A DNA stretch of 60,622 bases from a virus (lineage: Duplodnaviria > Caudoviricetes), in IMG/VR virus record IMGVR_UViG_3300042301_003480, positions 1 to 60,622 of that record. The stretch is one strand, 5' to 3'. Below are positions 1 to 59,790 of the stretch, in pieces. Numbering within the stretch: position 1 is the first letter of the stretch; each line of letters opens with the position of its first letter. Made by a program: the position numbers and the translations under genes. The notes under the pieces were generated by a model. That model was not told the origin of the DNA, searched no databases, and was given only the letters and a program-made list of their open reading frames with translations.

Positions 1-1
1 C

Positions 2-97
2 GATGTCCCACAGGGTGGTCAACGCCTTGTGGCCCAGCCGTGCGGCGTCGAACTCGCCCTGTTCGTCGGGCAGGTTGAAAGAGAGGGTGGCTTTCAT
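2..97 (-). CDS. Partial hypothetical protein (MKATLSFNLPDEQGEFDAARLGHKALTTLWDI), allele of 59529-59738
   Basis: Bases 1-80 align with about 59636-59715, giving a near-identical translation; the ORF runs off the window edge. Confidence 0.75.
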   Translation of the reverse strand, partial: MKATLSFNLPDEQGEFDAARLGHKALTTLWDI

Positions 98-200
98 TTG
101 GGGTGTGTATCAGGAGTGATACGTTTCGCTGCACACAACATGCGGCTTTCTGCAATCTTCCGTAGGCTCTTTATCTAACGCCGCACGTTATCACGTTCCG

Positions 201-218
201 CAGAAACACTGGTTCTCA
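201..218 (+). repeat. 18-bp CAGAAACACTGGTTCTCA, copy 1 of 3 (attI-like junction)
   Basis: Identical copies at 762-779 and 60125-60142; ends in the same GTTCTCA core as the attC-like sites. Confidence 0.85.
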
Positions 219-473
219 TCTTGACTTCCACCGCATGACTTTTGCTTCGCGCTCCCGACGCATCGCGTCTAGTACATTTGCCATCGCAAGCAGGTCAGAC
301 ATCTCTGACGCATCGGTTAGTTCTTGTTGTCCGCGCGCTCGCTCGGCGGCGTGAAGCCGGAGGCTTACTGCACCGTGCATCAACGCCCGTATTTCCGCGT
401 CGATCACCATTGTGATCGCCTGCCCGTGAGAACCACGCGATGCAGCGGACACCTCATCAGCCTCGTTTGTCAT
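216..473 (-). CDS. Hypothetical cassette protein, 85 aa
   Basis: AGGAG RBS and ATG inside attC 427-515; TGA inside GTTCTCA at 212-218. Confidence 0.7.
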   Translation of the reverse strand: MTNEADEVSAASRGSHGQAITMVIDAEIRALMHGAVSLRLHAAERARGQQELTDASEMSDLLAMANVLDAMRREREAKVMRWKSR

Positions 474-515
474 GGTCGCTCCTGTGTTCGATGCCGCTGA
501 TCGCTGGCGTTCTCA
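427..515 (+). other. attC-like integron recombination site (89 bp)
   Basis: TGAGAAC-CACGC-GAT[G]CAGCGG[A]CA ... TGCCGCTGATC-GCTGGC-GTTCTCA: R'', 5-bp spacer, L'', L', 6-bp spacer, R', with two unpaired bases at the usual positions. Confidence 0.8.
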
Positions 516-634
516 CTTTGTCCGTTCCAAGAGACGCTCCAGCACCTCGTCGGCAGCACTATGGAGCCGACTCATCTTGTAATCCTCAAACACAGAGCGA
601 GCAAGTCCGATGGCCGTCCGCTCCTCGTCGGTGA
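508..634 (+). repeat. 127-bp exact repeat of the window end (60496-60622); circularisation or assembly overlap
   Basis: Base-for-base identity; the length equals a common maximum assembler k-mer. Confidence 0.95.
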
Positions 635-737
635 GCCGCAGCCTGGCAACCTCTGCCTCTAGTTGCTGCACTCGCTCCATTGCCTGGATGAGCGCATCCA
701 GATCGTCGGGCATCATCGGCGGTATCAAATCACTCAT
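513..737 (-). CDS. Hypothetical protein, LTDxERxAI...LLERTK family
   Basis: GGAG RBS upstream; C-terminal module shared with 1280, 60140 and 1005 ORFs; stop in the R' box. Confidence 0.75.
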   Translation of the reverse strand: MSDLIPPMMPDDLDALIQAMERVQQLEAEVARLRLTDEERTAIGLARSVFEDYKMSRLHSAADEVLERLLERTK

Positions 738-761
738 GTCATGTCTCCCTTTCTACGCCCA

Positions 762-779
762 CAGAAACACTGGTTCTCA
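762..779 (+). repeat. 18-bp CAGAAACACTGGTTCTCA, copy 2 of 3
   Basis: Identical to 201-218 and 60125-60142. Confidence 0.85.
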
Positions 780-959
780 GTTCTTCCGTTTGGCTCTCCG
801 CGCGAACACCGGCACAACCGTTGCCCCGATGACGCGACGCCAACCAGCAACCAACACGCGGTTCTTTGACCGCCGCAAAACCTCACCAGAGCAGTTCTCT
901 ACCAACTCCCAAGACACCGGCATCTCGCTCTTTGCGCTTCCGCACTTTGGACACGGCAT
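777..959 (-). CDS. Hypothetical cassette protein, 60 aa (CPKC N-terminus)
   Basis: AAGGAG RBS; TGA in GTTCTCA 773-779; bounded by the mini-attC at 979-1007. Confidence 0.55.
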   Translation of the reverse strand: MPCPKCGSAKSEMPVSWELVENCSGEVLRRSKNRVLVAGWRRVIGATVVPVFARRAKRKN

Positions 960-978
960 CTCGCTACTCCTTTGCCCT

Positions 979-1007
979 TGAGAACCAAGCGATCCTGTTC
1001 GTTCTCA
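979..1007 (+). other. Collapsed (internally deleted) attC-like site, 29 bp
   Basis: TGAGAAC-CAAGC-GATC-CTGTTC-GTTCTCA keeps R'', both spacers and R' but lacks the L stem. Confidence 0.65.
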
Positions 1008-1283
1008 GAATAGTCTCTTCGCCAACCCGCGCAACGCATCGGCGTGTGCAGCGACCTCTGGGGTGTCTTCCTCGTCCCACTCGTCGGCCTCTCTCGCCGC
1101 CCATGCAACTGCGAGTTGCTCCGCTTCGGTGAGCGTGGGCGAGCGGCACAGCGGGACGACGCCGTGATTGCCCGTCACAACCGCGTCAATCGCCTTGGCT
1201 TCCTCTTCGACGGCGTAGACATCGTAGATGCGGTCGCCGTCCGCGAGCAGGACCGCCCACGCTATCGGCTCGTTGTGGCTCAC
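1005..1283 (-). CDS. Hypothetical protein (EPIAWAV N-terminus; TLTEAEQLAV module)
   Basis: GTGA overlap with the upstream gene; stop in GTTCTCA 1001-1007. Confidence 0.7.
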   Translation of the reverse strand: MSHNEPIAWAVLLADGDRIYDVYAVEEEAKAIDAVVTGNHGVVPLCRSPTLTEAEQLAVAWAAREADEWDEEDTPEVAAHADALRGLAKRLF

Positions 1284-1525
1284 TTCGTCCGCTCCAGTAG
1301 CGTCCGCAGCGTGGCGGGGTCACCGCATGTCTTGGCGTCAACCAGCTCGGCGGCTCTCTCAATCGCCTCCCGCTCCGCGTCGGTGAGCCTCGCTCGTTTC
1401 AGTGCGTCTGCCAATCTGTGAATCATGCAGTCGCGGTGCCACATATGGCAGCCGGCACTATGCGTTTTGATCGCCCTCGGCTGGGCGTCACTCCACTCAC
1501 GGTAGTCGGCAAGGATGTCAGGCAT
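1280..1525 (-). CDS. Hypothetical protein, LTDAEREAI...LLERTK family
   Basis: Shared C-terminal module; start chosen at MPDILAD. Confidence 0.7.
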   Translation of the reverse strand: MPDILADYREWSDAQPRAIKTHSAGCHMWHRDCMIHRLADALKRARLTDAEREAIERAAELVDAKTCGDPATLRTLLERTK

Positions 1526-1620
1526 TTTCCGCTGTCCTGTCAGGCGATCCCGGCGGGTTCGGCTTGCCGGATTATCGGGCCGGTGCCTGCCCGCCGGGAT
1601 CGCTGTTGCCACTCGTCGGT

Positions 1621-1679
1621 CGCCCCAATCGTATCGTATATGATACGAAAAGTGGTGACTTTTTCTTACGACTGGGGCG
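1621..1679. repeat. Nested inverted-repeat element
   Basis: CGCCCCAATCGTA ... TACGACTGGGGCG outer arms (1 mismatch) enclosing two smaller palindromes. Confidence 0.6.
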
Positions 1680-1699
1680 TTACTTTCCGTCCTCTAGCG

Positions 1700-2392
1700 T
1701 CATTGGGTCGCCGCGTACCTGACCAGCCGATCCCGGAAGTCCTTCACGCCGTCGCGGGTGTAGTTGGTCGGCAGTAGCGGGTTCACGGTGTTGTTTTGGT
1801 CTGCGATCTCTATGGGTGTGTATGAGAGCCTGACGAAGCACCGGCGGCTGCCGGCAGTTTCTGGCGGGCGTCTATGGATGACATACGGGTCAAGGACATA
1901 GCAAACGCTGGAGATGGTTCGCACAATCAACGCCGGGTCGATCCGCTCCTGAATCAGTAAGTGCAGGTTGTGGAATAGCGGATCGAAGTCTTCGGGGATG
2001 TCTACGCTTCCTTTGTAATACTCGGTTCCGCAAAAGTCTGACCAGATGTAGTTTTGCTCTGGGAGGTGGTGGTACTGCAACGAGAACCCGTCAACGTGCC
2101 ACTCGTCATCGCCCTGGCTGGCGACCATGCCATTGCGGACGGTGAGGTACAGAAACGGATGTCGGGCAATGTTCGCCTGCCGGGCCTCGGCCATGCCGAT
2201 CATCGGCAGCACCCATTGGAGCGAATGGGGCAACCGCAGCCCGTCGAATGGGCGGCGAATGAGCATCCGCAGGATGTGCTGCTCTTGCCTGGGGTAGTCC
2301 AGAAACAAATGGCCAAGAGATTCAGGGGCGTTGGCACCTTGAGCAAACGCCCGCAGGTCGATAGCACGCGCGGCTCGGCACTGGATACTCAT
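1700..2392 (-). CDS. Putative 2OG-Fe(II) dioxygenase-like protein
   Basis: WHVDG (HxD), GTEY, distal H in VIHRRP and RCFVRL fit the double-stranded beta-helix oxygenase motifs. Confidence 0.65.
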   Translation of the reverse strand: MSIQCRAARAIDLRAFAQGANAPESLGHLFLDYPRQEQHILRMLIRRPFDGLRLPHSLQWVLPMIGMAEARQANIARHPFLYLTVRNGMVASQGDDEWHVDGFSLQYHHLPEQNYIWSDFCGTEYYKGSVDIPEDFDPLFHNLHLLIQERIDPALIVRTISSVCYVLDPYVIHRRPPETAGSRRCFVRLSYTPIEIADQNNTVNPLLPTNYTRDGVKDFRDRLVRYAATQ

Positions 2393-2446
2393 GCCCGCCA
2401 TCGTACCGACCTTGGCAAACGAGTCTACGCCTGTTTCGGCCGCCTC
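2390..2446 (-). promoter_or_regulatory. Sigma70-type promoter module copy 1 (TAGACT-N16-TACGAT-N7-ATG)
   Basis: Imperfect direct repeat of 2533-2589 with the boxes conserved and the spacer diverged. Confidence 0.6.
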
Positions 2447-2535
2447 TAGCGTCTGCTGGCGATCCAGACTACGAGCGCCTGCCCGGCGAACAGCACCGCC
2501 AGCATCGCGACGCCGGGCCAAGTGATTTCGTCCAT
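2446..2535 (-). CDS. 29-aa hydrophobic peptide MDEITWPGVAMLAVLFAGQALVVWIASRR
   Basis: Translated by hand; directly follows the duplicated promoter; one TM-like segment and a basic tail. Confidence 0.55.
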   Translation of the reverse strand: MDEITWPGVAMLAVLFAGQALVVWIASRR

Positions 2536-2589
2536 GCCCGCCATCCTATCGCCGCCGTCCAGCGAGTCTACGCCTGTTTTCGCCCCTCC
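2533..2589 (-). promoter_or_regulatory. Sigma70-type promoter module copy 2 (TAGACT-N16-TAGGAT-N7-ATG)
   Basis: Shares CATGCCCGCCATC and CGAGTCTACGCCTGTTT with copy 1. Confidence 0.6.
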
Positions 2590-2689
2590 GTCGCCTCCCT
2601 CGCGTGGCACGCGAGATCATCAGCGACGGCAGGGCCATCTGTCCCTACGCATGGCAGGGCAGTCTGTCGTCACATTAGTGCGTCTAGCG

Positions 2690-3007
2690 TCAGAGCGGCG
2701 ACGGATCGGCTGGCAGCAGCGCCACCGCGTCGGCCCATGGCATGACCGTCACCGCCTGCCCTAACACTGCCTTGTCCGCGGCCTCCCACATCGCATGGAG
2801 CAAGCCGCCCGGCCCGACTTCAGTCAGAACGTCCGCGCAGAGCATCAGCCGCCCATCGGTCAGCACGCGAGGCAAGGGGACGCAGTTGGTGGAGCCGTGC
2901 AGGCCGTGCAGTTCCGCGAGCCTGCCAGCCAGTTGCGGCGTAAAGACGAGAGCCAGCGACTTGGCGGCTTCGTAGGAGATCGGCAGCGTGAGGTCTGCGA
3001 GCGTCAT
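2690..3007 (-). CDS. Hypothetical protein, 105 aa
   Basis: ATGA overlap with the upstream gene. Confidence 0.7.
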   Translation of the reverse strand: MTLADLTLPISYEAAKSLALVFTPQLAGRLAELHGLHGSTNCVPLPRVLTDGRLMLCADVLTEVGPGGLLHAMWEAADKAVLGQAVTVMPWADAVALLPADPSPL

Positions 3008-3870
3008 ACGTTTCGGCCCAGGGAGGTCTGCAATGCCTGCATGGCGGCGTAATAGGCCGACACCTGCGTGTCCGTCATGCTCGCGCCGATGCTGTACGAC
3101 AGGATCCTGTGGTTAGAAAACAATTGCGGCGTTCCCGCTGAATTGCTGGCATGGACAAACCAGCTATTTGCGTGTGTTGCCGGCGTTGTGTTGGCTGTTC
3201 CTGTCACTTTGCTTGTGGCATTGTTGTACGTCGTAATCGCAGTGCTGCTCGTCCGAGTGATCGTCCACAGTCCGCCTGGGAGGGTCGTTACACCGGCCGC
3301 GAAGGTGTCGTCGGTGTTTGCAGTTCCGCCCCATACGGCGCGTACCTGGACGAGGCTTGCGCCCGACAAGCGATGAGTGACCTGAAACTGGTGCGATGCG
3401 CTCGCTGTACCTAACAACGCGCGGCTACTGCCAGCGGCTAACGACGGGATGTATGCCGACAGGTGACCTGTTGCAATCCCAGGAATCGCGGCTGGCGTCA
3501 GTCCAGTAGAGAGGTACTTACTGGTGCCGTCGCCCAAGAGTCCGCCGCTCGCGCCCGTCTCGGAAAAGTCGCCGCTCACAAACGGCCCGTTGTTCGTGTC
3601 GGTGGTTCCGCCGTACTGCGTCCCGCCGAGTGACTGCCCGCGATAGAGCGGCACCAGACACGCCTCAAGGCCCGTGCCGCAGAAGAGATTCAGCCGGTAG
3701 AAGCGGTCGCGGATGCCCGCCAGGTCGATGGCGGCGCAAAAGGCGCTGACGGCTCGCATGGTCGAAGCCGACACGCTGCCTCCGTTGGCGACAACTGCCG
3801 TCCTCCAGGCGTTGGCTTCCGGGTGGACGCCAGAGGCGAGCGGACGCAAGAGGCGGGGATTCATCGGCAT
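3004..3870 (-). CDS. Putative virion or fibre protein with a ConA/LamG-like beta-rich domain
   Basis: G/T/S-rich; GDGTSKYLSTG and C-terminal MTDTQVSAYY pattern; start at MPMNPRLLRP. Confidence 0.55.
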   Translation of the reverse strand: MPMNPRLLRPLASGVHPEANAWRTAVVANGGSVSASTMRAVSAFCAAIDLAGIRDRFYRLNLFCGTGLEACLVPLYRGQSLGGTQYGGTTDTNNGPFVSGDFSETGASGGLLGDGTSKYLSTGLTPAAIPGIATGHLSAYIPSLAAGSSRALLGTASASHQFQVTHRLSGASLVQVRAVWGGTANTDDTFAAGVTTLPGGLWTITRTSSTAITTYNNATSKVTGTANTTPATHANSWFVHASNSAGTPQLFSNHRILSYSIGASMTDTQVSAYYAAMQALQTSLGRNV

Positions 3871-3908
3871 CGGCGCGTCTCTAGAGTGGTGATGTAAGGT
3901 CGGAGGGG

Positions 3909-4238
3909 TCAGCCCTTGGCCATAACCGTCATGGCACAGGTCGTCCCGCCCACAACGACGGGCACCACGTAGTTCACGGCAAAACAGGCGTCCGGGACCG
4001 GGAGAATCCCCACGGTCACCGCCGAGGTCACCGCCGCACCGTCTGCAAAGATCGCCCGCGGCGTCACGGACGGGTCTACAGTCCCGTGCCAGTTGATCTG
4101 CGTGCAGGAATTGGTGGCGGCGATCATGACGCACGCCCCGCCAAAACGGCCGAAGGGAATCATCCCTGCCGTTGTGGCTGCCGAGGAGTTGGCCGTAATC
4201 ACCGAGCCGGGAGAAAAGTGCCGTGCAATCTCGTTCAT
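3909..4238 (-). CDS. Small putative structural protein, 109 aa
   Basis: ATGA-coupled, beta-rich, A/V/T/G composition. Confidence 0.65.
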   Translation of the reverse strand: MNEIARHFSPGSVITANSSAATTAGMIPFGRFGGACVMIAATNSCTQINWHGTVDPSVTPRAIFADGAAVTSAVTVGILPVPDACFAVNYVVPVVVGGTTCAMTVMAKG

Positions 4239-4765
4239 AGCCGTCCCTTTACCTTGTAGGCGTGTTTTTCAATGATCTTCTCACGCAGCTCCCCGGTCTT
4301 GGCGGTCGGGTTCTTGCGCTTCTCCTTGCGAAGTTCGTCTTTGATGATGGATTCGGCCAGAACCACGCGCTTCGGCGGGGCCTCGCCGGGGTCGTAGTTC
4401 ACGCTGCCGGTTACGTGCAGGCGCCTCTTGCGGGCCACACTCAGAACGTCGTCGTTGCCCGTGACCCACGCGGCCGGGTCTTTCCAGCCCCGCTTGTCGG
4501 CTATCCCGGCGCAGTAGTATTTGCCCGAGATATTGATCCCCGCCTGGCGGGCTTCCCGCGCGACGTACTGAGCCTGACGCTTCGGCATTTCGTCCAACTG
4601 CTCGTTGTTCTGCCGCCCCTCCAGGAAGGCCCTGTCAGTGCCCTTGGTCCCAGGCGGCTGCTGAAGGGCAACCATGGCCGCCCAGCGCTCCCCGTACGGG
4701 AGCGCCTTTTCGTACGCGCTCTTGGCCCAGATGCCGGCGGCTTCGATCTCAGGCGGGTATGTCAT
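4235..4765 (-). CDS. Hypothetical protein downstream of portal, 176 aa
   Basis: Long ORF in the operon, preceded by a GGCCAATAGT motif. Confidence 0.8.
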   Translation of the reverse strand: MTYPPEIEAAGIWAKSAYEKALPYGERWAAMVALQQPPGTKGTDRAFLEGRQNNEQLDEMPKRQAQYVAREARQAGINISGKYYCAGIADKRGWKDPAAWVTGNDDVLSVARKRRLHVTGSVNYDPGEAPPKRVVLAESIIKDELRKEKRKNPTAKTGELREKIIEKHAYKVKGRL

Positions 4766-4771
4766 ATAGGA

Positions 4772-6751
4772 CTATTGGCCTTGGGGAGGGGCTTCGGGAG
4801 GAGGGCCAGGAGGAGGTGGCGGAGGTGGAGGGACCATGTATCGGCTGATATCCACGTTCATCGCCTTGCCCCAGTCCTCCAGCATGGCGTTGAAGATTTG
4901 CGGCTGTCCCGCCTGGAGCATGCCCTGCGCCACCGGCATCATGATCTGCATGGCGTTGTTCATGTTCTCCACCTTGGTGGCGATATTCGGCTTGCGTGCC
5001 GAGCCCGCCTCCACCCGGTAGGAATACTCCCGGACAATCGACTCCGGGTCTTCGCCCTGGACATGCATCTGCCAGGCTTGTGCAGCCATCGGTCCAAGAA
5101 CGGGCGCAACGTCTTGGGGGTAAATCAACCATCGGGCCAAGAGCGCTTCCTTCCTGGCCACCTCAGACAGGGCGTCCTCCAGGATGTTGGCGTAGTCGTC
5201 GGGCCTCACGGAAATCTGCTCAGACTTCACGGCGGCTTCTGCTGCCGACCTGAAGGAGGCCCTGGTCATACCGTAAATTAACTCTGTCAGACCGACGCGG
5301 CGGTCGAACAGGTCCGTCACGGCCTGGATGATGTTGTACATGTCCTGGGTGACACCAGGCATCTGGAAGACCGAGATCACATCATTGACTGACCGACCGA
5401 CAGACTCGCTGATTTCAACGATGTTGAAACCGCCCTCGTTCTTCTCCAGGATCTTGGCCTTGAGGTCCGGGTCGGCATGCTTGGCAACACCAATCAGCGT
5501 CTGGCTGGAGGTCGCAATCCGGGTCGCCAAGAACGACATCGCCCAGTTGATGAATCGCAACTCTCCAATTCCCGGACGAATCAGGGAGATCGGCCAGGAA
5601 TACCCGGGCTTGCCATGCCACGCCAAGGGGGTGAACGGCCAGCCGCTTGGCTCTGCCCAGAAGGGGATGGGCCACTGGGCCGCCATGAACAGCGCTTGCG
5701 GAATCCCCGTCTCGTCCACTTCCTCTTGCAACATAGCCGGAGGGATGTTCAGTGGAAAATCAACACCCTCCGCCACAACTATGTAGCAATTCGGACCAAG
5801 GGCATCGAACTTTCCTCGCAAGTCTTGGTCGGCGTCCTTGAGCCTGTCTCCGAATCCCGTCTTGGAGTAAATCTCCCAGTAGACGATCAGGTCGTTCGTC
5901 TTGCCGGTCTTCTTCTCATGCTGATAGCCACGCTCGGTGGAGTCAGCCTGGCGAGAATAGGATTCGACCGAACCCTTCAGGTCTTCCCGGGACAAGCCGA
6001 ACTTGGCGGCCACTTCATCGATGGGCTGGATTCTCCGCCTGGCCGCCCAGCGGATGTCCTCAAACTCATCCGCATCCGGATCCCAGACCAGATTGTCGAT
6101 GGTGTCGTAGAACGACCCGGCCATCCGCGTCTGCCCGCCGGGAGGGGTGTACAGCTCATGCCACCACACTCCCGCGCCTTTGATGAACGCTTCCTCCACC
6201 ACTTTGCGAGAGTGGTGCTTGAGGTTCAGTTCATTGGGGGTGTAGTTGAGATAATCTTCCAGGAGCTTGGCAATGACCTTCCGCCGCTCCAGCATCATCT
6301 GCTGCTGCTGGAACATCTGCTGGTACTGCATCATCCCCGGGTCGGGCATCATCACCGGCTGGCCATCCGGACCCATGACAGGCTGGCCGTCAGGCCCCAT
6401 CTGCGGGACCGGAGGCTGGGGAAAGATACCCAAGAGCTGCGGCCCGATGACCGGGTAGTCCTTGGGGGTCACCGTCCTGGTCGGATTGCGGTGATGGATG
6501 ACTGCCGTAAACAAACGGACGGCCTCCCAAACGCGGTTGACCATCATCCGGAACGGCGGCGGATCGATGCCCTTGTTGTACCCACGCTCTCCGCGGGAGT
6601 AGGAGTCCTTCCACATGAAATCGGGGTCGCCGGCAAAGAACCCCATGGCTTCGTCTGCATCGGCCTGAAACGCAGATTTATACTTCTGCGCCTGCTTCAA
6701 ACAGCTCAGCCAGCGCGCCACCAGTGGCTTTATCGGATTTTCCTGGCTCAT
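4772..6751 (-). CDS. Portal protein (P22-like podoviral type)
   Basis: 659 aa near TerL; AFIKGAGVWW, RSAAEA and YRVEAGS segments resemble podoviral portals; Pro/Gln-rich tail and MGPDGQPV x2 insert. Confidence 0.8.
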   Translation of the reverse strand: MSQENPIKPLVARWLSCLKQAQKYKSAFQADADEAMGFFAGDPDFMWKDSYSRGERGYNKGIDPPPFRMMVNRVWEAVRLFTAVIHHRNPTRTVTPKDYPVIGPQLLGIFPQPPVPQMGPDGQPVMGPDGQPVMMPDPGMMQYQQMFQQQQMMLERRKVIAKLLEDYLNYTPNELNLKHHSRKVVEEAFIKGAGVWWHELYTPPGGQTRMAGSFYDTIDNLVWDPDADEFEDIRWAARRRIQPIDEVAAKFGLSREDLKGSVESYSRQADSTERGYQHEKKTGKTNDLIVYWEIYSKTGFGDRLKDADQDLRGKFDALGPNCYIVVAEGVDFPLNIPPAMLQEEVDETGIPQALFMAAQWPIPFWAEPSGWPFTPLAWHGKPGYSWPISLIRPGIGELRFINWAMSFLATRIATSSQTLIGVAKHADPDLKAKILEKNEGGFNIVEISESVGRSVNDVISVFQMPGVTQDMYNIIQAVTDLFDRRVGLTELIYGMTRASFRSAAEAAVKSEQISVRPDDYANILEDALSEVARKEALLARWLIYPQDVAPVLGPMAAQAWQMHVQGEDPESIVREYSYRVEAGSARKPNIATKVENMNNAMQIMMPVAQGMLQAGQPQIFNAMLEDWGKAMNVDISRYMVPPPPPPPPGPPPEAPPQGQ

Positions 6752-7407
6752 CCCGCAGCCTGCCTCTCGTCGCCCACCAGTCCCTCAAGCTCCCTGACCC
6801 GCTCTCGTAGCGAACGCAACTCGCGCATCACATCAACGTGCAGTAGCTTGTGGTCCGACCCAGAAACCACCGCCAGATTCTCTGGCCGATTGTCGTCCTT
6901 AACGCCGTTGATGTGATGCACATGCTCGTCATCGCCAAGCATTCGGCCAAGCTTTTCCGCCATTACCAGGCGATGCTCCAGAACGTAGCCGTTTTTCCCA
7001 GACATAGGATGGTTGCGGCGAAGCAGATAGATGTACCCGCCCGCAGTAGATGTCCTTCCGCCCTTCCAGATCGGATTGTTCTCGCCCGCCAGACGCCAGC
7101 CTGGCGGGCGAGAAATTCCGAGCTTGCTGAGGCGGCGACTCACTGGCGAACGAGTCACCCCGTACATATCCGCGATCTCGTAGCTGCTCTTTCCGAGCCC
7201 TATGTACAGATGCCGAAGCTGCTGTTCGTCCAAGGCGTCCATGGCCCGGCGTCTGTCCCGAACGGCATAGCCACCCTGCCGCAGATGCCGCGACAGGGTG
7301 TTTACGCTCTTCGGCATGCCGTCCATGCGGACGATCTTATTCAGCGACAGGCCCTCGTCGTTGTGGAGTCGGTTGGCCTCGGCAACGTCAAAGGACACTT
7401 CTGGCAT
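6748..7407 (-). CDS. HNH homing endonuclease with N-terminal HTH motifs
   Basis: YVLEHRLVM...HVHHINGVKDDNRPENL; NPIWKGG. Confidence 0.9.
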   Translation of the reverse strand: MPEVSFDVAEANRLHNDEGLSLNKIVRMDGMPKSVNTLSRHLRQGGYAVRDRRRAMDALDEQQLRHLYIGLGKSSYEIADMYGVTRSPVSRRLSKLGISRPPGWRLAGENNPIWKGGRTSTAGGYIYLLRRNHPMSGKNGYVLEHRLVMAEKLGRMLGDDEHVHHINGVKDDNRPENLAVVSGSDHKLLHVDVMRELRSLRERVRELEGLVGDERQAAG

Positions 7408-7435
7408 TCTGGTTCTCCTACCGACTAGTGTCCGG

Positions 7436-7756
7436 TTAAGCCTTTTTCGGGGCTGTGGCGGCCACCTTCTTGTCCAGGAGGCTGACTTTCTCGCTCAGAA
7501 TGGAGATCGTCGGATCCTTGGGCTTGTGTTCCCAGTAGCCGTACCGCTTCCAATCCGGGAACTCGTTCACTCCCGGATCGGTCAGGTGGTGGACCGAGGG
7601 CTTCACCACGCCGCCCAGTTCGCCCGCAATCGCCCAGAGGGTGAGGGTGCGGGAGGCCAGGACCGACACAAACGCCGGGACCGGGGTGGCCCCTTCATGG
7701 GCGTAGAACAGCACAATGTCGCCCAACTCAGCCTTGGGCATGTCAAAGGAACTCAC
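7436..7756 (-). CDS. Hypothetical protein
   Basis: GTG start with AGGAG RBS overlapping the TerL stop. Confidence 0.65.
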   Translation of the reverse strand: MSSFDMPKAELGDIVLFYAHEGATPVPAFVSVLASRTLTLWAIAGELGGVVKPSVHHLTDPGVNEFPDWKRYGYWEHKPKDPTISILSEKVSLLDKKVAATAPKKA

Positions 7757-9441
7757 GGCAATCTCCTGCTGGGCCCGAGGATTACGTGGGGGTCGGTGGA
7801 CTCCCGCTGGCGGCGCTTGCGCTCCGACAGCCACTTCACCCACCAAGGATCGGGACCGTAAGTCCGTGGGGGTGCGTGGTATTTGGGTTCGTAGGCGCAG
7901 AGGTACTCAAGCGACTGGCAGGCGTGAACCTCGCCGCGGGTCTGCGGCTGGTCGGTCACAAAGACCTGCCCGTTGACCGTCGTCGTCTTCTTGCGATACC
8001 GCTTCAGTTCCCGAATCAGGTTGGGGCAGGAACCCTCCAGGATCTTGAGCCTGGTCGTCCCGTCGCCCTGGATATGGAGCAGTTGACGAACGATGGACGT
8101 TCTGGCCGGGATGTCATCGGAGCCCGGGATAAACCCATGCCCGCCGATGGTGAAGCGAATCTTCCGCTTCTTCAGCTCTTCGGAGTACAGCTCATGCGGC
8201 AATCGTCCTGAACCAAGATCACGGAGCAAACCACCGTGCATGTCCATGATCGCCGCGTGAATGTGCTGACTCAGAACCTTCACCCCAAACTGCTCGCCCC
8301 AGATCAGCGCGTTGCAGTTCCGGATGTACAGTTCGTCATACACAACCAGGAATCGCTCATGCGGCGGGACTGCGGCGAATAGCGTTGCCATCACCGCATG
8401 GCCAGGGTCAATCGCCACATACCGCGTCCAGTCAGGCGGAATGACCCCATCCTTCAACTCCGCCCGCGGCAGGATATGCACGCTGCGGTTGAACGTCGGG
8501 TACATGAGCGTGGATTCGGTGGTGAACTCACCCTCGGCACGCATCCGGACTTCGTCGGCGCCCAGAGCGGACCAGCGTTCGATGTTCTTTCGCTTTTCCT
8601 CAGAATCAATAAAGTCGTTGTCCAAAAATCTGAACGTGAACTTCTTGATGATTGGATTCTCTTGCCCCTCCTCCACCGCTCGGTCGGCACGTTCGCACAG
8701 GCCAAGGAGCGCATCGTTCCGGGACCAGGGCATGGCAGACCAGACGAAGCGACCCTTGCGGTCTGCCAAACGCGCCTGAGATTCACCGACGAACGCTTCG
8801 TTTGTAACGTCCTCGTCAATCCAAATTAGGTCGGCCTGGTAGCCTTGGGGGGGCTCTCCTTCTGAGGAGAAACACCAGATCGTCCAGCCGTTCGTCAGCT
8901 CCAGCTTGTTGAGGTAGCCGGCGTTCTTCAGCACCCAGGAGACATCCTTCACCAGCCGCGGCGGGATCAGCGGGGGAGCGGGCTTGCTCTTGCTCTTGTC
9001 ATCACCCGGGCGGATGGATCTCCACTGGCCCGTTTTCTCATCCTTGATGATCCGAAACGCCCCGGCTTTGAGGAGAATCGGATAAATCACCAAGCCAATG
9101 TGGGGCCAGTTCCGGCCGATGATTGCGAGGTTGCCGCCTTCTTTGGGGTACTTGCCGTATGGATCCTGCCCCGTAGCTGCGCGGGCCGCTTCCACCGCCA
9201 CGGCCAGAGTTTTCCCGCCTCGGTTACCACCCAGAACAATCCGCTCCGAGGCCAGGCACTTGTGGAACTCATCCTGGTGCGGCATGGGTTCATACAGCCG
9301 GAGCGACTCTAGCCGCCGCTCCGTGAGGGCGGTCTGGACATCCTTGAGCTGCCCTAGCTGATGCTGGGTGACGTTCCCCAGCGGACCTTCAGGAGTCGGT
9401 GGGGGCGGAATTTGGCGGGGGTGTTTCTTCATATTCGCCAC
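7753..9441 (-). CDS. terL: Terminase large subunit
   Basis: HQ adenine motif, Walker A GGNRGGKT, Walker B LIWIDE, RNase H-like YVAIDPG. Confidence 0.92.
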   Translation of the reverse strand: MANMKKHPRQIPPPPTPEGPLGNVTQHQLGQLKDVQTALTERRLESLRLYEPMPHQDEFHKCLASERIVLGGNRGGKTLAVAVEAARAATGQDPYGKYPKEGGNLAIIGRNWPHIGLVIYPILLKAGAFRIIKDEKTGQWRSIRPGDDKSKSKPAPPLIPPRLVKDVSWVLKNAGYLNKLELTNGWTIWCFSSEGEPPQGYQADLIWIDEDVTNEAFVGESQARLADRKGRFVWSAMPWSRNDALLGLCERADRAVEEGQENPIIKKFTFRFLDNDFIDSEEKRKNIERWSALGADEVRMRAEGEFTTESTLMYPTFNRSVHILPRAELKDGVIPPDWTRYVAIDPGHAVMATLFAAVPPHERFLVVYDELYIRNCNALIWGEQFGVKVLSQHIHAAIMDMHGGLLRDLGSGRLPHELYSEELKKRKIRFTIGGHGFIPGSDDIPARTSIVRQLLHIQGDGTTRLKILEGSCPNLIRELKRYRKKTTTVNGQVFVTDQPQTRGEVHACQSLEYLCAYEPKYHAPPRTYGPDPWWVKWLSERKRRQRESTDPHVILGPSRRLP

Positions 9442-9574: not shown

Positions 9575-10073
9575 CCACCACCTCAAAGTGTTTCATCGTC
9601 ATCGCTGCTTCGATCACCTGCCGCCGAAGCTCGGCTTCCAGCTCTTCCTCAGTCATCAGCTCCAAGGGCTTCTTGGCTCCACCCATGGCGGTGTTCGTCG
9701 TCACCAAGCGGACCACGCTGTCCAGCATCTTCGTCCTGAAAGCCCCACCTACAGGCGCATCGTAGAACTGCTTCATGTACAGATTGGCAAACCCCCGGAC
9801 GCCCCCGAAATACTCCATGAGTACTTCCAGGAGTTCCGAGGAGTGGGGGATGTTCGCCCCGCCAATCCTGGCCGCCGCCACAAAGTTTTTGACGGCCCCC
9901 TTTTCGATCTCTTCCAACTTGCTGTTCCGCTTGCCCTTGCGGTCAGTGCGGATCTTCTTGTTCCGGCACTTCCGGCAGCGGGCGTGGAAGCCATCCTTGG
10001 ACTTGTGGTAGTAGGCGGTTGTCGCGGGCCACGCTAGGCCGCACGCTATGCAGACCTTCTCAGCTTCCGACAC
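9447..10073 (-). CDS. Possible terminase small subunit with N-terminal Zn finger
   Basis: CxxC...CxxC; helical; immediately upstream of TerL. Confidence 0.5.
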   Translation of the reverse strand: MSEAEKVCIACGLAWPATTAYYHKSKDGFHARCRKCRNKKIRTDRKGKRNSKLEEIEKGAVKNFVAAARIGGANIPHSSELLEVLMEYFGGVRGFANLYMKQFYDAPVGGAFRTKMLDSVVRLVTTNTAMGGAKKPLELMTEEELEAELRRQVIEAAMTMKHFEVVDEVRGLPLVDSSGGGDARGVSPVSADAHRAESLGPIPRDDAH

Positions 10074-11463
10074 TCGCCACCCAGACGCTTCCAGTCACCA
10101 CGGGCTTCAAGCCGCTGCCCCGCACGGCCGCCTCCACGCCGTGGAAAACGAAGTAGTCATGTCCCGCCAAGAAGTATTTGGCCTTGCTCCGCCAGCCCCG
10201 GATGTCAGCCTCCACGGAAGCCTCGTCATGCTCGGCGTCCAAGTAGACGATGTCGAACTTGCCATCCGGGAACGTGGCGGCAATGTCCGGAGATCGGCCG
10301 ACCACATGGTCGATTGAGTAACCAGCCGTGTTGCGCAGGAACACCTCCAAGGGCTTCCCCCTGGAACCGTCGTACGCCTTGCAGCCGCCGTCGTTCTTGG
10401 AGCCCTCCCACGTATCGATGCAGGTCACCTTGGCGCCGGCCTGGGCCATGATGATCGCACTACGACCCGCCCAAGACCCAACCTCGCAGACATGCGGCGG
10501 GCGGCCGTGCTTAGTGGTGAAATCCTTCACCAACTCTTCCAGGGCTGCGACATCCTTCTCGGGCAGTTCCATTCCCATTCCATCGAACACACGCTTCTCC
10601 GGGATCCGAATCGCCACCGGAGACTGAAAGTCCACCAGCTTCACGCCACTTTGGACGTTGGCTTCCCAGCAGTCCTTCATCTTCTTAGACACGCCCTCGG
10701 CTGTAATGACCTGGGGCTTGCCGACGCACTTGGGCTTCCAATGACCCGCCCAAGCATCCCAGTTGCAGTAGACCGGGTTGTAGCCCAGCCTCTGCGTGCC
10801 GATCATGGACAAGTCCCTGGTCATGGTTACGTCTTCAGTGCTTGCCTTGTCAGCGCAGAAGTGGTCCTTCCACTCGTAGTAAAACCAGGGCTTGTCGTCC
10901 GTCGTCTTCGGCTCAGTGAGGTCAAAGGCCCGCATGTCGTACATGATCAGCCCGGTCGGCAAGGCCGCGCATTCCTGGATGCCCGCCAGCTTGATCGCCG
11001 TGTGGCGGTCGTACATCTCCAACTGGAAGTCTGGGTTGGGGTTCTCGCTGGCCAGGTTGTTCCAGCGAAACACGTACACGCACTCCACCGGGGGCGGGCC
11101 ACAGTACGGAGCCCCGATCACACACGGCCCCTTGGGATAGTGGTTGACCAAGAAGTCAAACGACGACTGGAAGAAGGGCTTGGCGTCCGGCTGGCCGTTG
11201 TTCAGGTCCGGCTTCATGTCCGAATCGACCATCACCAAAACATCCACGCCGTGCTGCCGGGCCTGGAGGACAGCCCGGTTTCTGGTCATGGTGATGGGCG
11301 TGTCGGCCAGGTTCCAGATGCGGATGTTCTCCACCCGCGGATCCCGGGAGAGATCAACGACAAGGGGAGTCATCCACTCCCGGATGTCCGGCACCTCAGA
11401 GGAGATGCCGCCGTTGCCACCGTAGCTAAACGTAACGATTCCGACGTTGAACTTCTGTTGCAC
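10060..11463 (-). CDS. GT-A glycosyltransferase fused to class I SAM methyltransferase
   Basis: TRN...LVMVDSDM (DxD), TG, ED in the N-half; CEVGSWAGRS, IDTW, VYLDAEH, AGHDY in the C-half. Confidence 0.8.
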   Translation of the reverse strand: MQQKFNVGIVTFSYGGNGGISSEVPDIREWMTPLVVDLSRDPRVENIRIWNLADTPITMTRNRAVLQARQHGVDVLVMVDSDMKPDLNNGQPDAKPFFQSSFDFLVNHYPKGPCVIGAPYCGPPPVECVYVFRWNNLASENPNPDFQLEMYDRHTAIKLAGIQECAALPTGLIMYDMRAFDLTEPKTTDDKPWFYYEWKDHFCADKASTEDVTMTRDLSMIGTQRLGYNPVYCNWDAWAGHWKPKCVGKPQVITAEGVSKKMKDCWEANVQSGVKLVDFQSPVAIRIPEKRVFDGMGMELPEKDVAALEELVKDFTTKHGRPPHVCEVGSWAGRSAIIMAQAGAKVTCIDTWEGSKNDGGCKAYDGSRGKPLEVFLRNTAGYSIDHVVGRSPDIAATFPDGKFDIVYLDAEHDEASVEADIRGWRSKAKYFLAGHDYFVFHGVEAAVRGSGLKPVVTGSVWVASVGS

Positions 11464-35830: not shown

Positions 35831-36083
35831 TTAAGTACACCGTGCGGGCATGTGCCCACTCCTCCACAAACGTATCGATCAAGCCTACGCGATCTTGGGT
35901 TTCCAAGATACTGATGACTCCGCGTTCTTCGTCGTCGTCAAAGGTAAAAAACCCGAGGTGGTTTTCCATCCTCGCCGGAGGTCGGAGGTACACCCGGATC
36001 GGGTAGGTGATCGGGAACCGCTCCTCCGCCCACAGCTTGAGCCGCTTGAGCAATCGCTTTCGCCAGTCTTGGGGCATCGTCAA
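35733..36083 (-). CDS. Putative zincin-like protein (EEWAH variant)
   Basis: DTFVEEWAHA...H...FW. Confidence 0.5.
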   Translation of the reverse strand: MTMPQDWRKRLLKRLKLWAEERFPITYPIRVYLRPPARMENHLGFFTFDDDEERGVISILETQDRVGLIDTFVEEWAHARTVYLIDTEDNDEDPYHHPSFWSEYGRIQQAARQQEW

Positions 36084-36360
36084 GCCTCACTATGAGCAGC
36101 CAGGGTTTGTTGTTCCGGCGGTGGAGTACGACCGGCGCGTTCTTCCCTGCATCTCGGACGGCCTGATCCATCCACACGTAGGGGTTGCCAGCCTCCACTC
36201 GCTTCACCTCTACATGAATGCCCGCCATGCCGGTGATCACATCCGGACTCTCTGTCCCGCCCGCAAATTGCTGGCCTCTCCTGGCGGCCACGCCGAACAC
36301 ATCCGTCCAGGCACGGGCTGCTTCCCGCTCCCCTCTTGCGCCTTTGGATCGACTATTCAT
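35938..36360 (-). CDS. PD-(D/E)xK Holliday junction resolvase-like nuclease
   Basis: SRSKGARGERE, PDV, VEVKR, QA. Confidence 0.8.
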   Translation of the reverse strand: MNSRSKGARGEREAARAWTDVFGVAARRGQQFAGGTESPDVITGMAGIHVEVKRVEAGNPYVWMDQAVRDAGKNAPVVLHRRNNKPWLLIVRLDDAPRLAKAIAQAAQAVGGGAVPDHLPDPGVPPTSGEDGKPPRVFYL

Positions 36361-36599
36361 TTCCGCATCCTCGCCAAGGGGCCATTGAAGGAGATCGCAT
36401 CCAACTCCTGGAGATCCTGGAACTGCTCGGCCAGGAGACGCAACGCTTCGCTGGGACGCTTCTTGTCCAGGACTTTGGCGTTCTGCCCCACCCAGGTGCC
36501 GACCTGGCTGGCGAAGGCGAAGTCTCTGTTGTCCCCGAGGGAGGGCCAGAAGAAGATGAACTTGTAGTTGTTGGTCTTGGCACTGCTCCCGATCAGCAT
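36357..36599 (-). CDS. Hypothetical protein, 80 aa
   Basis: GGAG RBS, ATGA coupling. Confidence 0.6.
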   Translation of the reverse strand: MLIGSSAKTNNYKFIFFWPSLGDNRDFAFASQVGTWVGQNAKVLDKKRPSEALRLLAEQFQDLQELDAISFNGPLARMRK

Positions 36600-36967
36600 T
36601 GGTCTGGCTCCTCGCTGGCAACCATCGTTCGTAGGATTTCCAGGTAGTGATCTGGCCGGGAGTCAGCCACATGGCGATCCAGCAGCCACTGGGTCAGAGT
36701 CTCTCCGCTCTGGATGTCGGCCAGATCCCCGAGCAGGCGGCCGTAGGAATCTCGGAACCACTCCCAGGTGATCAGCCTCAGTCGCTCGGCGTCGGCGTGG
36801 ATCTCAACCCAGTCCAGGATTTCCTGCTTGGCTTCTGGCTTGCAGGCCACGCCCTCAAGGACGAGGTAAACGTGTACGCTCGCCATCACCTGGGGGCAGT
36901 ACGTGCGAATCAGAATGGTGTCCGGTCTGGTGACGCGGATCACCTGGCAAGTCATGGCTTCCGGCAT
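36593..36967 (-). CDS. Degenerate SNase (thermonuclease)-like protein
   Basis: VIRV..PDTI, L.GV, RDSYGRLLG. Confidence 0.55.
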   Translation of the reverse strand: MPEAMTCQVIRVTRPDTILIRTYCPQVMASVHVYLVLEGVACKPEAKQEILDWVEIHADAERLRLITWEWFRDSYGRLLGDLADIQSGETLTQWLLDRHVADSRPDHYLEILRTMVASEEPDQC

Positions 36968-41870: not shown

Positions 41871-42203
41871 TCAGGCGAAGTCCGAGGCGAACTCGGGCTC
41901 TGCCTTTGTTTCCTTCTTGCCGGTCAGTTGCAGCGTCCGAACCTTCAGCACCTTCTTGCTGCGCTCCTGGCCGTCCTTCATCCACTTCTGGGTCTGGATC
42001 TCGCCCGAGCAAAACACCGAGGTTCCTTGGGCGACATAAGCCAGTGCCCCATTCGGCTCCCACCACTCACAATCGAAGAACTCCACGGAGTCCTTGTAGC
42101 CATTCACGGCTACAGAAAACTTGGCAACCTGCTTCTCCCCGACTTGTCGAATGTCCGGGTCTTTGGTCACGTTGCCGAGAATCATCACGCACTGGTAACC
42201 CAT
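41871..42203 (-). CDS. ssb: Single-stranded DNA-binding protein
   Basis: ILGNVTKDPDIR, FSVAVN, G..V...G.IQT..W, acidic tail. Confidence 0.92.
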   Translation of the reverse strand: MGYQCVMILGNVTKDPDIRQVGEKQVAKFSVAVNGYKDSVEFFDCEWWEPNGALAYVAQGTSVFCSGEIQTQKWMKDGQERSKKVLKVRTLQLTGKKETKAEPEFASDFA

Positions 42204-42832
42204 TACTTGGCCTCCTTTTGCCAGACCTTGTTGAACTCTTCCTCACACCGCTTGAACACCTCGGGCGGGACCGACTTTTCCTTGGCCCGCAACCTGACCG
42301 TGTCCAAGTGTTTCTGCGCCTCGGCCTTCGTCTCGGCCTCGGCAATCGCCTTCTTGGCCCCCTGTTCGTAGGCCAGGGACTTGTACACATCGCCTGTCTT
42401 CGGGGCCGAGGACTGGACGGCATTGCCGTCGTCATCAGGCTCACCGCTGAACCCGCCCGTCAGGGCCATGAGCAGGGTCCGCTTGGCGTATGTCATCGCC
42501 GCACCGAACCCCTGCATGTCCCCCTTGGGATTGATCAGCGGAGCGCACCCCTGGATGTACTCACCGCTGGTATGCCGAAGCGTGCCCACCAGCACCCACT
42601 GCCCAGCCACCAAGCCTGGGCGAAAGTCAGGCAGGCACAATCCATGCGCAGTGAGCGGACCCCGAAGGGACTCGCAGCACTGCTGGTAACTAGCAAACCG
42701 GGACTTAAAGTGCGGGTTAGCACTGTCCAGCTTTACCGCCTGGTACTCAGCCTGGGCCTTGGCCAACGCCTCGGTCAGCTTGCCCGTAGCCGGGGACGAT
42801 GACGGCCCCAGGATTTCCGTGTGATCAGTCAT
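42203..42832 (-). CDS. ERF-family single-strand annealing protein
   Basis: ALAKAQ, NPHFKS, LRHTSGE, Q.FGAAMTYAKR, DDDGN. Confidence 0.9.
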   Translation of the reverse strand: MTDHTEILGPSSSPATGKLTEALAKAQAEYQAVKLDSANPHFKSRFASYQQCCESLRGPLTAHGLCLPDFRPGLVAGQWVLVGTLRHTSGEYIQGCAPLINPKGDMQGFGAAMTYAKRTLLMALTGGFSGEPDDDGNAVQSSAPKTGDVYKSLAYEQGAKKAIAEAETKAEAQKHLDTVRLRAKEKSVPPEVFKRCEEEFNKVWQKEAK

Positions 42833-43689
42833 AGTTCGACAACCTCCTCCTGCCGCATGGCCCACTGCGGGAAGGCCATCTCCTGAATCTCCTCCGCATC
42901 CGCGGGCACATACATCCCCGTCGAACGCCGCAGTCGGACCTCTTCCATAGTGCTGATCAAACGCCTGCCAGCAGCCGCCACCATCTCCTCCGGCAGGACG
43001 AACGCTCGGCAGGCGTAGGGGGGCATGGTCTGGACGAAGACAAAGGGCATGCGGAACGGCGGATAGCCAATCGCATACGCACCCTGCTGGTACAGCCAGT
43101 CCTGTTCCAGGTAGCCGTAGTCCAGCGCACTGCGGTGGATGCGATCCCACGGCGACGAGGTGGTCTTGAGATCCCACCACTTGTCATCACAACAAGCGTC
43201 CGGACGAACCTTCAGCTTGTGACCGTACGCCTCAAAGAACACAGACAACTGCGTCCTGGTGGTCTTGGTCATCAGCTCGTAGACCGCATCGTTCCCCCGC
43301 ATGGAGTCCAGCATCTTGCCGTACTGCCACTTCTTGTCGGCAGTGATGCAGATGCCGGTCTGGCCCGCAGCCCATTCCTTGTACGCCTTGGTGCTGCGTG
43401 AGCCGTTGGCCCCGAGAACCTCGTCGGGCGGAACCACAACGACATCATCAAACCGCTTGCCGCCCAAGATGGCCGTAACGATCTCGTCAAACTCGCTGCC
43501 CGTGGTGGTCGCAGAGTTCCCCCCAAAAAGGGAGTGGCCCGTGTCCATCCACAACTGGGCTTCCCCGCCGCCCTTCTGCACCGAGCAGAGGAACGAACGG
43601 CCGTCGAAAGGCTTCTTCTGGTGGTAAGCCTGGTTCGACATCCCCGTGACCGTCACGGGCAGGTCGTCCCAATTAATCTCGCTGTCCAT
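42829..43689 (-). CDS. RecE/DUF3799-like PD-(D/E)xK exonuclease
   Basis: MSNQAYH, KVRPD, DLKTT, Y..Q...Y, FVFV...PPY. Confidence 0.85.
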   Translation of the reverse strand: MDSEINWDDLPVTVTGMSNQAYHQKKPFDGRSFLCSVQKGGGEAQLWMDTGHSLFGGNSATTTGSEFDEIVTAILGGKRFDDVVVVPPDEVLGANGSRSTKAYKEWAAGQTGICITADKKWQYGKMLDSMRGNDAVYELMTKTTRTQLSVFFEAYGHKLKVRPDACCDDKWWDLKTTSSPWDRIHRSALDYGYLEQDWLYQQGAYAIGYPPFRMPFVFVQTMPPYACRAFVLPEEMVAAAGRRLISTMEEVRLRRSTGMYVPADAEEIQEMAFPQWAMRQEEVVEL

Positions 43690-43913
43690 GCGTATAGTCC
43701 TCCTAGTGAAAAGCCCCGTCCGTGGGGCGAACGCGATCCCTCTTGCCCCTCCATGGGCGAACCAACTCCAAATACGCTTTGCCAAACTGTCCAAGGGAGA
43801 ACAGCAGGCACGCAGTGCCGAAAGCAGAGAGGTAAACGCAGACCGTCAGACAGACGATCCAGGCCGCGCGGAGAATGGGCCAGCGGCGGTAGGTGAGCCA
43901 GACCGCGAGGCAA

Positions 43914-43936
43914 CTAACCAACTGAGCTAGCTGCCC
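43914..43936 (-). other. tRNA 5'-end fragment GGGCAGCTAGCTCAGTTGGTTAG; candidate attP core
   Basis: Acceptor 5' strand plus TAGCTCAGTTGGTTAG D-arm consensus, with no anticodon or T arm; about 90 bp from the integrase start. Confidence 0.7.
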
Positions 43937-44023
43937 GCGGCCCTGAGTTTGCCGGTTATACCGCATCTCCAGCCGACTTGAAGCCCCCAAGGAGGGCGGC
44001 ATACTGGCCCGCCCGGTGTCCCC

Positions 44024-59414: not shown

Positions 59415-59433
59415 GGCTCTAGGGACTAATGCC

Positions 59434-59532
59434 CTAGAACGCGGACCTGAGAAACACCAAGGCCCCGGCCAGGGCCAAGGCCAGAAGACCGGCAGACAGG
59501 GCCATACTGAGGAGAAAAAGCCGCAGTTTCAT
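59434..59532 (-). CDS. 32-aa hydrophobic peptide
   Basis: ATGA overlap; one TM segment. Confidence 0.45.
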   Translation of the reverse strand: MKLRLFLLSMALSAGLLALALAGALVFLRSAF

Positions 59533-59738: not shown

Positions 59739-59790
59739 GTCAGATGTGATGTGTTGCGGAAACGGATTGCGGGCGACAACACGCAAACTG

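Follow-up and report, generated by a model that had tools for sequence, protein, structure and literature searches.

Two alleles of a reversed gene cassette at a probable integrase-less integron platform in a lake phage genome

The DNA described here is a phage sequence of 60,622 bases, corresponding to the whole of IMG/VR record IMGVR_UViG_3300042301_003480 (class linear, CheckV completeness 100%) and hereafter called the window. Its two extremities carry two versions of a single locus of small genes and attC-type hairpins, which we interpret as a likely integron platform devoid of an integrase of its own. The last 127 bases (60496–60622) repeat positions 508–634 exactly, so that the segment 508–60495 closes into a circle and positions 1–507 represent a second version of 59636–60495. 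These two versions are called path A (1–507) and path B (59636–60495). All genes of the locus are on the minus strand. Both paths start in homologous genes, with 84% DNA identity between 1–92 and 59636–59727; the segment 1–96 is the path A counterpart of the conserved gene at 59529–59741, which flanks the platform on the side of an attI-like junction. Path A continues with a 21 bp attI-like core (198–218), gene oA (216–473, 85 aa), the stop codon of which is formed by the first three bases of the 21-mer, and an attC-type hairpin (427–515), the loop of which holds the start of oA. Path B contains a 72 aa gene found only there (59791–60009), an identical copy of the 21-mer (60122–60142), gene oB (60140–60472, 110 aa) and a second hairpin (60414–60503). 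From the repeat onward, both versions share gene o513 (513–737, 74 aa), a further attI-like core differing by one base and lying within the array between o777 and o513 (759–779), gene o777 (777–959, 60 aa), the stop codon of which falls within TGAGAAC, and a truncated hairpin between o1005 and o777 (979–1007). In every TGAGAAC of the locus, the TGA serves as the stop of a small gene. The products of oB, o513 and o1280 are members of a small paralogue family and end in LTDEER...LLERTK. Searches of eight small open reading frames (ORFs) against Pfam and PHROGs gave no match above threshold, and neither oA nor oB belongs to a known family; for oB the best score in the ESM Atlas (0.85) pointed to hypothetical viral clusters and is a lead only.

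The global alignment of 1–634 with 59501–60622 showed three shared islands: 163–184 facing 60015–60037, then 185–196, then the 21-mer itself (198–218 = 60122–60142). Immediately beyond, 219–507 and 60143–60495 were dissimilar, and only a 13-mer around 427/60414 and scattered bases could be aligned. Identity returned at position 508 (60496), one base ahead of the motif GTTCTCA. The left boundary lies within a sequence of which a 17-mer occurs three times in the window (at 202, 763 and 60126) for 0.08 copies expected, a number reached in none of 100 shuffled sequences. Six of the nine GTTCTCA sites of the window and three of the five TGAGAAC sites are in this locus. Path A carries oA (85 aa), and path B carries oB (110 aa) and the additional gene at 59791–60009; path B also has insertions of 21 and 51 bases that are absent from path A. 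The existence of two versions of one locus rejoining at 508 = 60496, put forward in a preliminary description made from the sequence alone, is confirmed by the exact repeat and by the alignment. The same description placed the divergence exactly at a GTT crossover core. The boundaries are compatible with such a core; identity extends six bases beyond the proposed G|TT on the left and begins one base ahead of it on the right, so that the boundaries fit the core without pinpointing it. The left boundary of the exchanged unit is an attI-like junction core and not an attC site. Judging from the 127-base overlap in the record, the two paths would form an assembly bubble within one population.

Applying the G|TT rule to the top strand delimits two cassettes, 213–509 (oA reversed, plus its attC) and 60137–60497 (oB reversed, plus its attC). 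Further alleles, which the preliminary description had suggested looking for, were found in related contigs (L054, L052, L056, L006, L050 and L053). The related contigs were collected through a neighbouring 378 aa protein (39 contigs), through an 18-mer (13) and through a flanking 70 aa protein (20); a 15-base scan of viral contigs yielded 110 stretches, most of them unrelated to the locus. The block of small genes, located between a conserved 105 aa gene and the 378 aa gene, was hypervariable and was wholly absent in many relatives. The allele B cassette was present in L054 with an A-type downstream flank. In L052 and L056 a haplotype approximately 95% identical to path A was found, and the oA gene, the 21-mer, the short spacer and the next gene were common to all three; in L052 the oA cassette lies behind a different upstream gene. 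The contigs L006, L050 and L053 break inside o513, directly after the LTDEER codons (609–610 in the window).

The hairpins were modelled on 17 aligned phage copies, giving a covariance model called R1. Both window hairpins were detected on the minus strand, with 90.6 bits (E 4.5e-21) for allele A and 84.7 bits (E 1.9e-19) for allele B. Among 66 phage sources amounting to 672,131 bases, R1 produced 36 matches (28 distinct); all those with E <= 0.03 were on the gene strand, and one weak exception had an E-value of 0.17. Read on the gene strand, the element starts with the arm TGAGAAC, a 5 nt spacer and a 10 nt arm, followed by the loop, and returns through an 11 nt arm including one extra C, a 4 nt spacer and GTTCTCA. 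In allele A the loop consists of the ribosome site, the ATG and eight codons of oA. The two window copies measure 89–90 bases, with an R stem of 7 bp and an L stem of 10 bp, and the allele B copy is an L-stem variant with compensatory changes and one G.T pair. Over the family, 97.8% of the L-stem cells were paired and seven of the ten pairs changed on both sides. The covariation of this stem was 0.278, compared to 0.123 in shuffles (none of 500 reached the observed value), and slid controls were paired at 47% at most. The only non-Watson-Crick pairs were G.T on the gene strand (six cells, against no A.C). Among the 28 distinct copies the three inner pairs of the R stem were A-T in 27, A-T in 26 and C-G in 27, so the AAC/GTT triplet is present. 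This triplet is part of the definition of attC (Escudero et al. 2016, PMC4792948; Cury et al. 2016, PMC4889954), and attC sites are described as conserving only it and a folded structure, in a paper that also treats the role of the folded single strands (PMC4792948). The anatomy of attC was defined in PMC4889954, together with that of the attC clusters without an integron integrase (CALINs), and the variable terminal structure there measures 20–100 nt in the seed set. The phage loops ranged from 5 to about 48 nt and took three forms: 5 nt, approximately 46 non-coding nt lengthening the stem, and approximately 44 nt with a ribosome site, an ATG and the first codons; in the last form the 3' arm is translated as ...S.GSHG. 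The spacers of 5 and 4 nt are unpaired and one C is bulged on the 3' arm, in the strand corresponding to the bottom strand of G007. Canonical attC sites have two or three extrahelical bases, usually G and T.

The same hairpins were found in bacteria, next to integron integrases. Species-representative bacterial genomes were scanned with a 20-base pattern of the 3' arm, which returned at least 120 stretches, and R1 was run on 80 of them. It gave 88 matches (E <= 0.01) in 24 loci, of which 18 were labelled Planctomycetota, three were labelled only "bacterium" and three had other names. These matches formed same-strand arrays of up to 10–12 copies spaced by about 350–1100 bases. The integron integrase model TIGR02249 was above its cut-off in eight of ten array-holding genomes and in none of 14 control genomes. 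In contig C19 of genome G007, ten hairpins (667–6106) are followed within about 650 bases by intI (6754–7890; TIGR02249, 454 bits for a cut-off of 265). Seven of the nine ORFs tested in the cassettes of this array matched Pfam families (HicA, MazF-like, ParE-like and four DUFs); these ORFs are encoded opposite to R1 and co-directionally with intI. Such an orientation of intI with its cassettes is an arrangement described for planctomycetes. Since these cassette genes are opposite to R1, the model strand is the attC bottom strand, and the plus strand of the window is the attC top strand, as the preliminary description had it. A test of strand by the longest open frame between bacterial hairpins was uninformative (25 against 22), and the Pfam matches were used instead. 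The phage genes are on the R1, or bottom, strand and are not co-oriented with the attC top strand; each hairpin precedes its gene and holds the ribosome site and the start codon of that gene, and the 5' arm begins with the stop codon of the gene before it. The hairpin probably acts as a translation-start module as well. When 13 phage proteins were compared with 133 bacterial loci by tblastn, just two relatives were obtained. The conservation of attC types within taxa, Planctomycetes included, has been reported (Ghaly et al. 2021, PMC8352920).

Four arrays from metagenome-assembled genomes (MAGs) of Planctomycetota carry a hairpin in whose loop the bottom strand has a ribosome site and an ATG that opens a frame with MPTDFIASPLHRLVL (L202 2666–2754, L210 2165–2253, L213 1592–1680 and L255 1866–1957). 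Reversed cassettes starting inside attC are thus not restricted to phages. Another planctomycete contig of 1.7 Mb (C18 of G006) shows, between 1619022 and 1630280, three partial tyrosine recombinase matches in a row a few kilobases from an integron integrase, with two weak hairpin matches nearby in an orientation unexpected for that intI.

The outer portion of an R' box in an integron array comes from the adjacent cassette. For every 3' arm, the four outer bases were compared with the next site's 5' arm. In the bacterial arrays all four bases paired with the next site in 36 of 51 cases and with the element's own 5' arm in 17 of 69, the figure for random pairs being 8%. In the phage contigs the corresponding values were 17 of 22 and 10 of 24, for 35% in random pairs. 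When the arms of an element were mismatched with each other, the neighbour still fitted in 25 of 30 bacterial (MAG) cases and in eight of nine phage cases. In L051, for instance, GTTATGC precedes GCATAAC, and in L181 the sequence ATAGAAC, with which the 21-mer starts, comes after GTTCTAT. On this comparison of sequences, neighbour-complementary R boxes are supported as the footprint of a crossover inside the R box. Homologous exchange through repeats of 89 bases would not fix the join within a 7-base box, and the footprint speaks against it.

In the 21-mer, the four leading bases change with the hairpin before it (TGAG, ACAG, ATAG or GCAT) and the remainder, ...AACCAGTGTTTCTG, is constant; in path A, read on the minus strand, the variable cassette end ...AAC is followed by the constant CAGTGTTTCTGCGG. 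The junction of G007 (6611–6631) reads ...AAC-N6-TTCTGCGG, with its first seven bases complementary to the 3' arm of the last hairpin: the cassette beside intI ends with GGCTAAC, complementary to GTTAGCC of that hairpin, and then comes GCCTTATTCTGCGG. In G008 a 16/20 match lies about 220 bases beyond intI, beside the start codon of a cassette, and since it was obtained in a loose search for which about two chance hits are estimated, its weight rests on its position. The shared 21-mer can be considered an attI-like junction resembling those of two planctomycete integrons, with a second copy inside the phage array; the closed circle has two copies. The possibility of a LexA-type GAAC-N4-GTTY box or of a stoperator-like repressor site, based on consensus sequences, was dropped because the first bases covary with the neighbouring hairpin.

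We propose that the locus is probably an integrase-less integron platform in a phage of Planctomycetota, made of an attI-like junction and of cassettes with planctomycete-type attC sites, and that the two paths differ because the cassette adjoining the attI-like site was replaced, oA and its attC taking the place of oB and its attC or the reverse. In this model, the crossover points would be inside the R boxes, ...AA|C on the bottom strand and G|TT on the top strand. A cassette read on the gene strand would begin with C, continue with the hairpin body containing the translation start and with the gene, and end with the stop codon in TGAGAA. Such a unit, C...TGAGAA, is exactly what differs between the paths, namely 213–509 and 60137–60497 on the top strand. 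The unit of gene plus attC recognised in the preliminary description does behave as an integron-type cassette, in view of the covarying hairpin, the arrays linked to IntI and the R-box signature. During infection, the integron integrase of the host would act in trans on the bottom strand in its folded state, and one phage population would harbour both alleles. In parallel, the same region is reshuffled by homologous recombination at other short repeats.

Several observations weigh against this proposal. The first concerns the enzyme. The only ORF of the phage matching PF00589 (44024–44851, plus strand, 28–29 bits) encodes a tyrosine recombinase which is not an integron integrase: it gave no TIGR02249 match at E <= 1, and its best NCBIfam match had 26.8 bits for a cut-off of 220. 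A phage tyrosine recombinase was found in all five complete relatives (30–89% identity), of which only one has the hairpin. The phage enzyme was set aside as the catalyst, as four of the five relatives carry it without hairpins, and the absence of IntI combined with this distribution means that catalysis would have to come from outside the phage. The second concerns the sites. The phage R' box GTTCTCA does not fit GTTRRRY; the R' boxes of the planctomycete arrays linked to IntI deviate likewise (GTTCGGC, GTTCTGC, GTTAGGC and similar). Folding of the two window hairpins as single sequences beat shuffles only weakly (z from -2.1 to -0.8, with 9, 16, 18 and 45 of 200 shuffles folding as well), and the case for the structure rests on covariation. 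The closed circle with allele B contains one full attC (60414–60503) and one truncated site (979–1007, minus strand, 21.3 bits, E 0.03), in which both R boxes are separated by only 15 nt; a full hairpin of 90 nt occupies the same position in L054. All R boxes of the two window alleles are identical, so that the crossover can be placed no more finely than within 7–8 shared bases. The loose search behind the G008 match has been mentioned. The connection between 1–507 and the sequence from 508 on is that given by the assembly of the record. The last concerns the distribution of breakpoints, described below with the exchange mechanism that it favours.

The principal alternative, which we regard as unlikely, is that the elements derive from attC sites and that the swap was made by ordinary homologous recombination, mediated by ERF or by the host RecA through o513 and the 21-base core, with no integrase in the phage. 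The phage encodes an ERF-family single-strand annealing protein (42203–43180, minus strand, PF04404, 39.1 bits for a cut-off of 25), a candidate agent of homologous exchange at short repeats, together with PDDEXK-type genes. The breakpoints were counted from 124 high-identity matches among 31 phage contigs, which gave 96 distinct identity ends. The commonest location, with 28 ends, was a 27-base coding repeat specifying RLTDEER.AI, present in three paralogues of the window (1362–1389, 610–637 and 60213–60239). Six ends (one of them doubtful) were at hairpin R boxes and five at the edges of the 21-mer; the GTTAGATAAAGAG patch, a second coding patch and the TAGAGGCGG patch accounted for six, six and five ends, respectively, and the other 40 ends were elsewhere. 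Numerous breakpoints away from GTT, which the preliminary description had named as an observation contradicting cassette exchange, are therefore what is seen, only 11 of the 96 ends being at hairpin R boxes or at the attI-like core and 85 away from them. That many alleles break away from GTT indicates that homologous recombination also shuffles the locus, and the census taken alone fits homologous exchange aided by the phage ERF protein. The breaks of L006, L050 and L053 inside o513 agree with such a mechanism, as does the hairpin at position 1553 of L252, the L arms of which are of two different types. The R-box chimerism of the phage contigs, seen in eight of nine informative cases, requires a crossover at a fixed point of a 7-base box, and the L stems have remained paired at 97.8%; both speak against this alternative, although the footprint could predate the capture by the phage and have been made in a host integron.

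A second alternative, very improbable in our opinion, is that 1–507 is an assembly artefact and not an allele: part of another phage genome would have been attached to the circle by way of a shared repeat. The presence of the oA cassette behind a different upstream gene in L052 could be read in this way, and the hairpin arm is a high-copy repeat in lake metagenomes. Altogether 24 public runs contain at least 80% of the sampled words of 1–1300, all of them lake or freshwater metagenomes. In four runs, the word depth over 457–513 exceeded the depth of the next bin 2.5- to 12-fold. The pre-assembled public Logan contigs of four runs, compared with the locus, cover the region in short pieces broken at many points, and the contigs of run X1 end exactly at 507|508. 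Those of two runs connect position 507 to position 1000 through the eight shared bases CGTTCTCA, and in three of the four runs contigs leave the allele A hairpin at 512–513 for unrelated sequence, both of which suggest further alleles with cassette-sized differences. Hairpin forms with a short loop are also present. None of the contigs listed for the four runs had at least 31 bases on both sides of 507/508, and the longest allele A overhangs at this point, of 19, 15 and 6 bases, lie within the repeated hairpin arm. Against an artefact, positions 1–92 are homologous to the gene flanking path B (84%) and the order of the parts is the same in both paths, which makes it the same locus even if the sequence came from another strain. 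Moreover, an A-type flank is joined to the oB cassette in L054. For the join itself, the 127 identical bases are required on the o513 side alone, and there the paths are identical by construction.

The last alternative, that the hairpins are RNA elements only (for translation start, coupling or processing, as in the early genes of T7-like phages) and resemble attC by convergence, would suit the G.T pairs on the gene-sense strand, the ribosome site and ATG of most long loops and the upstream stop codon in the 5' arm, but R1 finds arrays beside IntI in bacteria with the genes on the other strand, copies with short or non-coding loops exist in phages and R-box chimerism has no RNA explanation, so that it is scarcely credible and disfavoured as an exclusive reading, a second role at the RNA level being compatible with the integron platform.

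The presumed platform is located in the middle of the structural gene block of the phage. PHROGs matches identified the portal (4772–6751), the large terminase (7753–9441) and a virion or tail protein (55223–58018), and a Pfam search showed that the genome also encodes a helicase. A 467 aa ORF (10060–11463) matches DNA methyltransferases (PHROG 2675, E 5.7e-10). The ERF protein belongs to a recombination module (42203–43794 and 35938–36672) with a PDDEXK-like ORF of the DUF3799 type, below cut-off, and a PDDEXK_15 endonuclease. The tyrosine recombinase ORF, on the plus strand, overlaps a 281 aa ORF on the minus strand (43703–44548), the strand of most genes there. The region 58000–60622 gave no match in the INPHARED phages, and an Rfam search of the window returned 0 matches; the attC models of IntegronFinder and HattCI are not part of Rfam. 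The 51-base insertion of path B (60046–60096), between the attI-like core and the gene at 59791–60009, is common to L170 and L181. Bounded by ...TAAC and GTTA..., it is able to form an imperfect hairpin; the segment 60024–60097 folded no better than shuffles (z -1.1 and -0.1) and was not matched by R1. Upstream of the small-gene block, a short repeat around TAGAGGCGG is found at 2420–2440 and 2552–2579 of the window, and also in L050, L168, L174, L175, L180–L182 and L184. Concerning the host, probably a member of the Planctomycetota as part of the proposal above, a contig of 7456 bases assigned to a Pirellulales MAG (L229) carries at 5298–5447 a 94% identical copy of o777 beside two hairpins. 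It represents a phage contig placed in the wrong bin or else a prophage, and is a lead to the host.

Integron parts, including 17 CALINs and attC sites that IntI1 recombined, have been reported in phage genomes (Qi et al. 2023, PMC9892861). The present locus resembles the phage CALINs in having, without intI, attC sites and cassettes, and that paper proposes that the cassettes are open to bacterial integrases. Two relatives contain several attC sites on one strand without intI, at least two being the number that defines a CALIN (eight R1 matches in L051 and seven in L181). Compared with the phage CALINs as described there, the locus differs by the planctomycete attC type and the attI-like junction, by the location of all genes on the bottom strand with the start codon in the hairpin loop, and by the two alleles one cassette apart in one record. 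With the chromosomal integrons of Planctomycetota, as represented by G007 C19, it shares the hairpin family, the GTTC... R box, the neighbour-complementary R boxes and the junction core, near intI in the bacterium; in these integrons intI is adjacent and the genes are on the top strand, whereas intI is missing from the phage, in which the genes run in reverse. We found no published description of reversed phage cassettes with a start codon in the attC loop, or of cassette polymorphism within a phage population, in a literature search which did not extend to the supplementary material of Qi et al. or of Ghaly et al.

The locus can also be compared with two other types of phage variability. Cassettes of promoter-early stem-loop (PeSL) elements in hyperplastic regions of T4-type phages were reportedly treated by Comeau et al. 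in 2014. PeSL elements associate a sigma-70-type promoter with a terminator stem-loop and undergo homologous exchange in T4-type phages (Arbiol et al. 2010, PMC2839356). From what this source describes, the likeness lies in stem-loop repeats flanking small non-essential genes and in the insertion, deletion and replacement of gene-sized pieces in a hypervariable region. No promoter-like site was found in 1–2700 and 59300–60622, and no terminator-like site at any junction element; cassettes of the PeSL type were ruled out on this basis. Here, in contrast with PeSL, the repeats are of the attC type and have a fixed crossover footprint. Tailed phages in general show mosaic exchange at short conserved boundary sequences. 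The many breakpoints at the edges of conserved patches of 20–30 bases, coding ones included, are similar to this mosaicism, which accounts for neither the R-box chimerism nor the kinship with arrays linked to IntI.

Integrons are treated as bacterial devices for gene capture, and attC clusters in phages have been reported only recently, as static elements. The alleles one cassette apart, the further combinations in lake contigs and the R-box footprint together point to cassette turnover in phage populations. If the IntI of the host does act on these sites, phages could draw on the large chromosomal cassette pools of planctomycetes and could feed them, the host phylum of an uncultured phage would be given by its attC type, and a recombination site would double as a gene-expression signal. 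More tentatively, we suggest that a lineage of lake phages may use the integron integrase of its host to draw, drop and swap accessory genes, the attC site being reversed and co-opted as a translation-start module; the cassette pools of phages and hosts would then be linked, and within one population the cassette content would vary from one individual phage to another.

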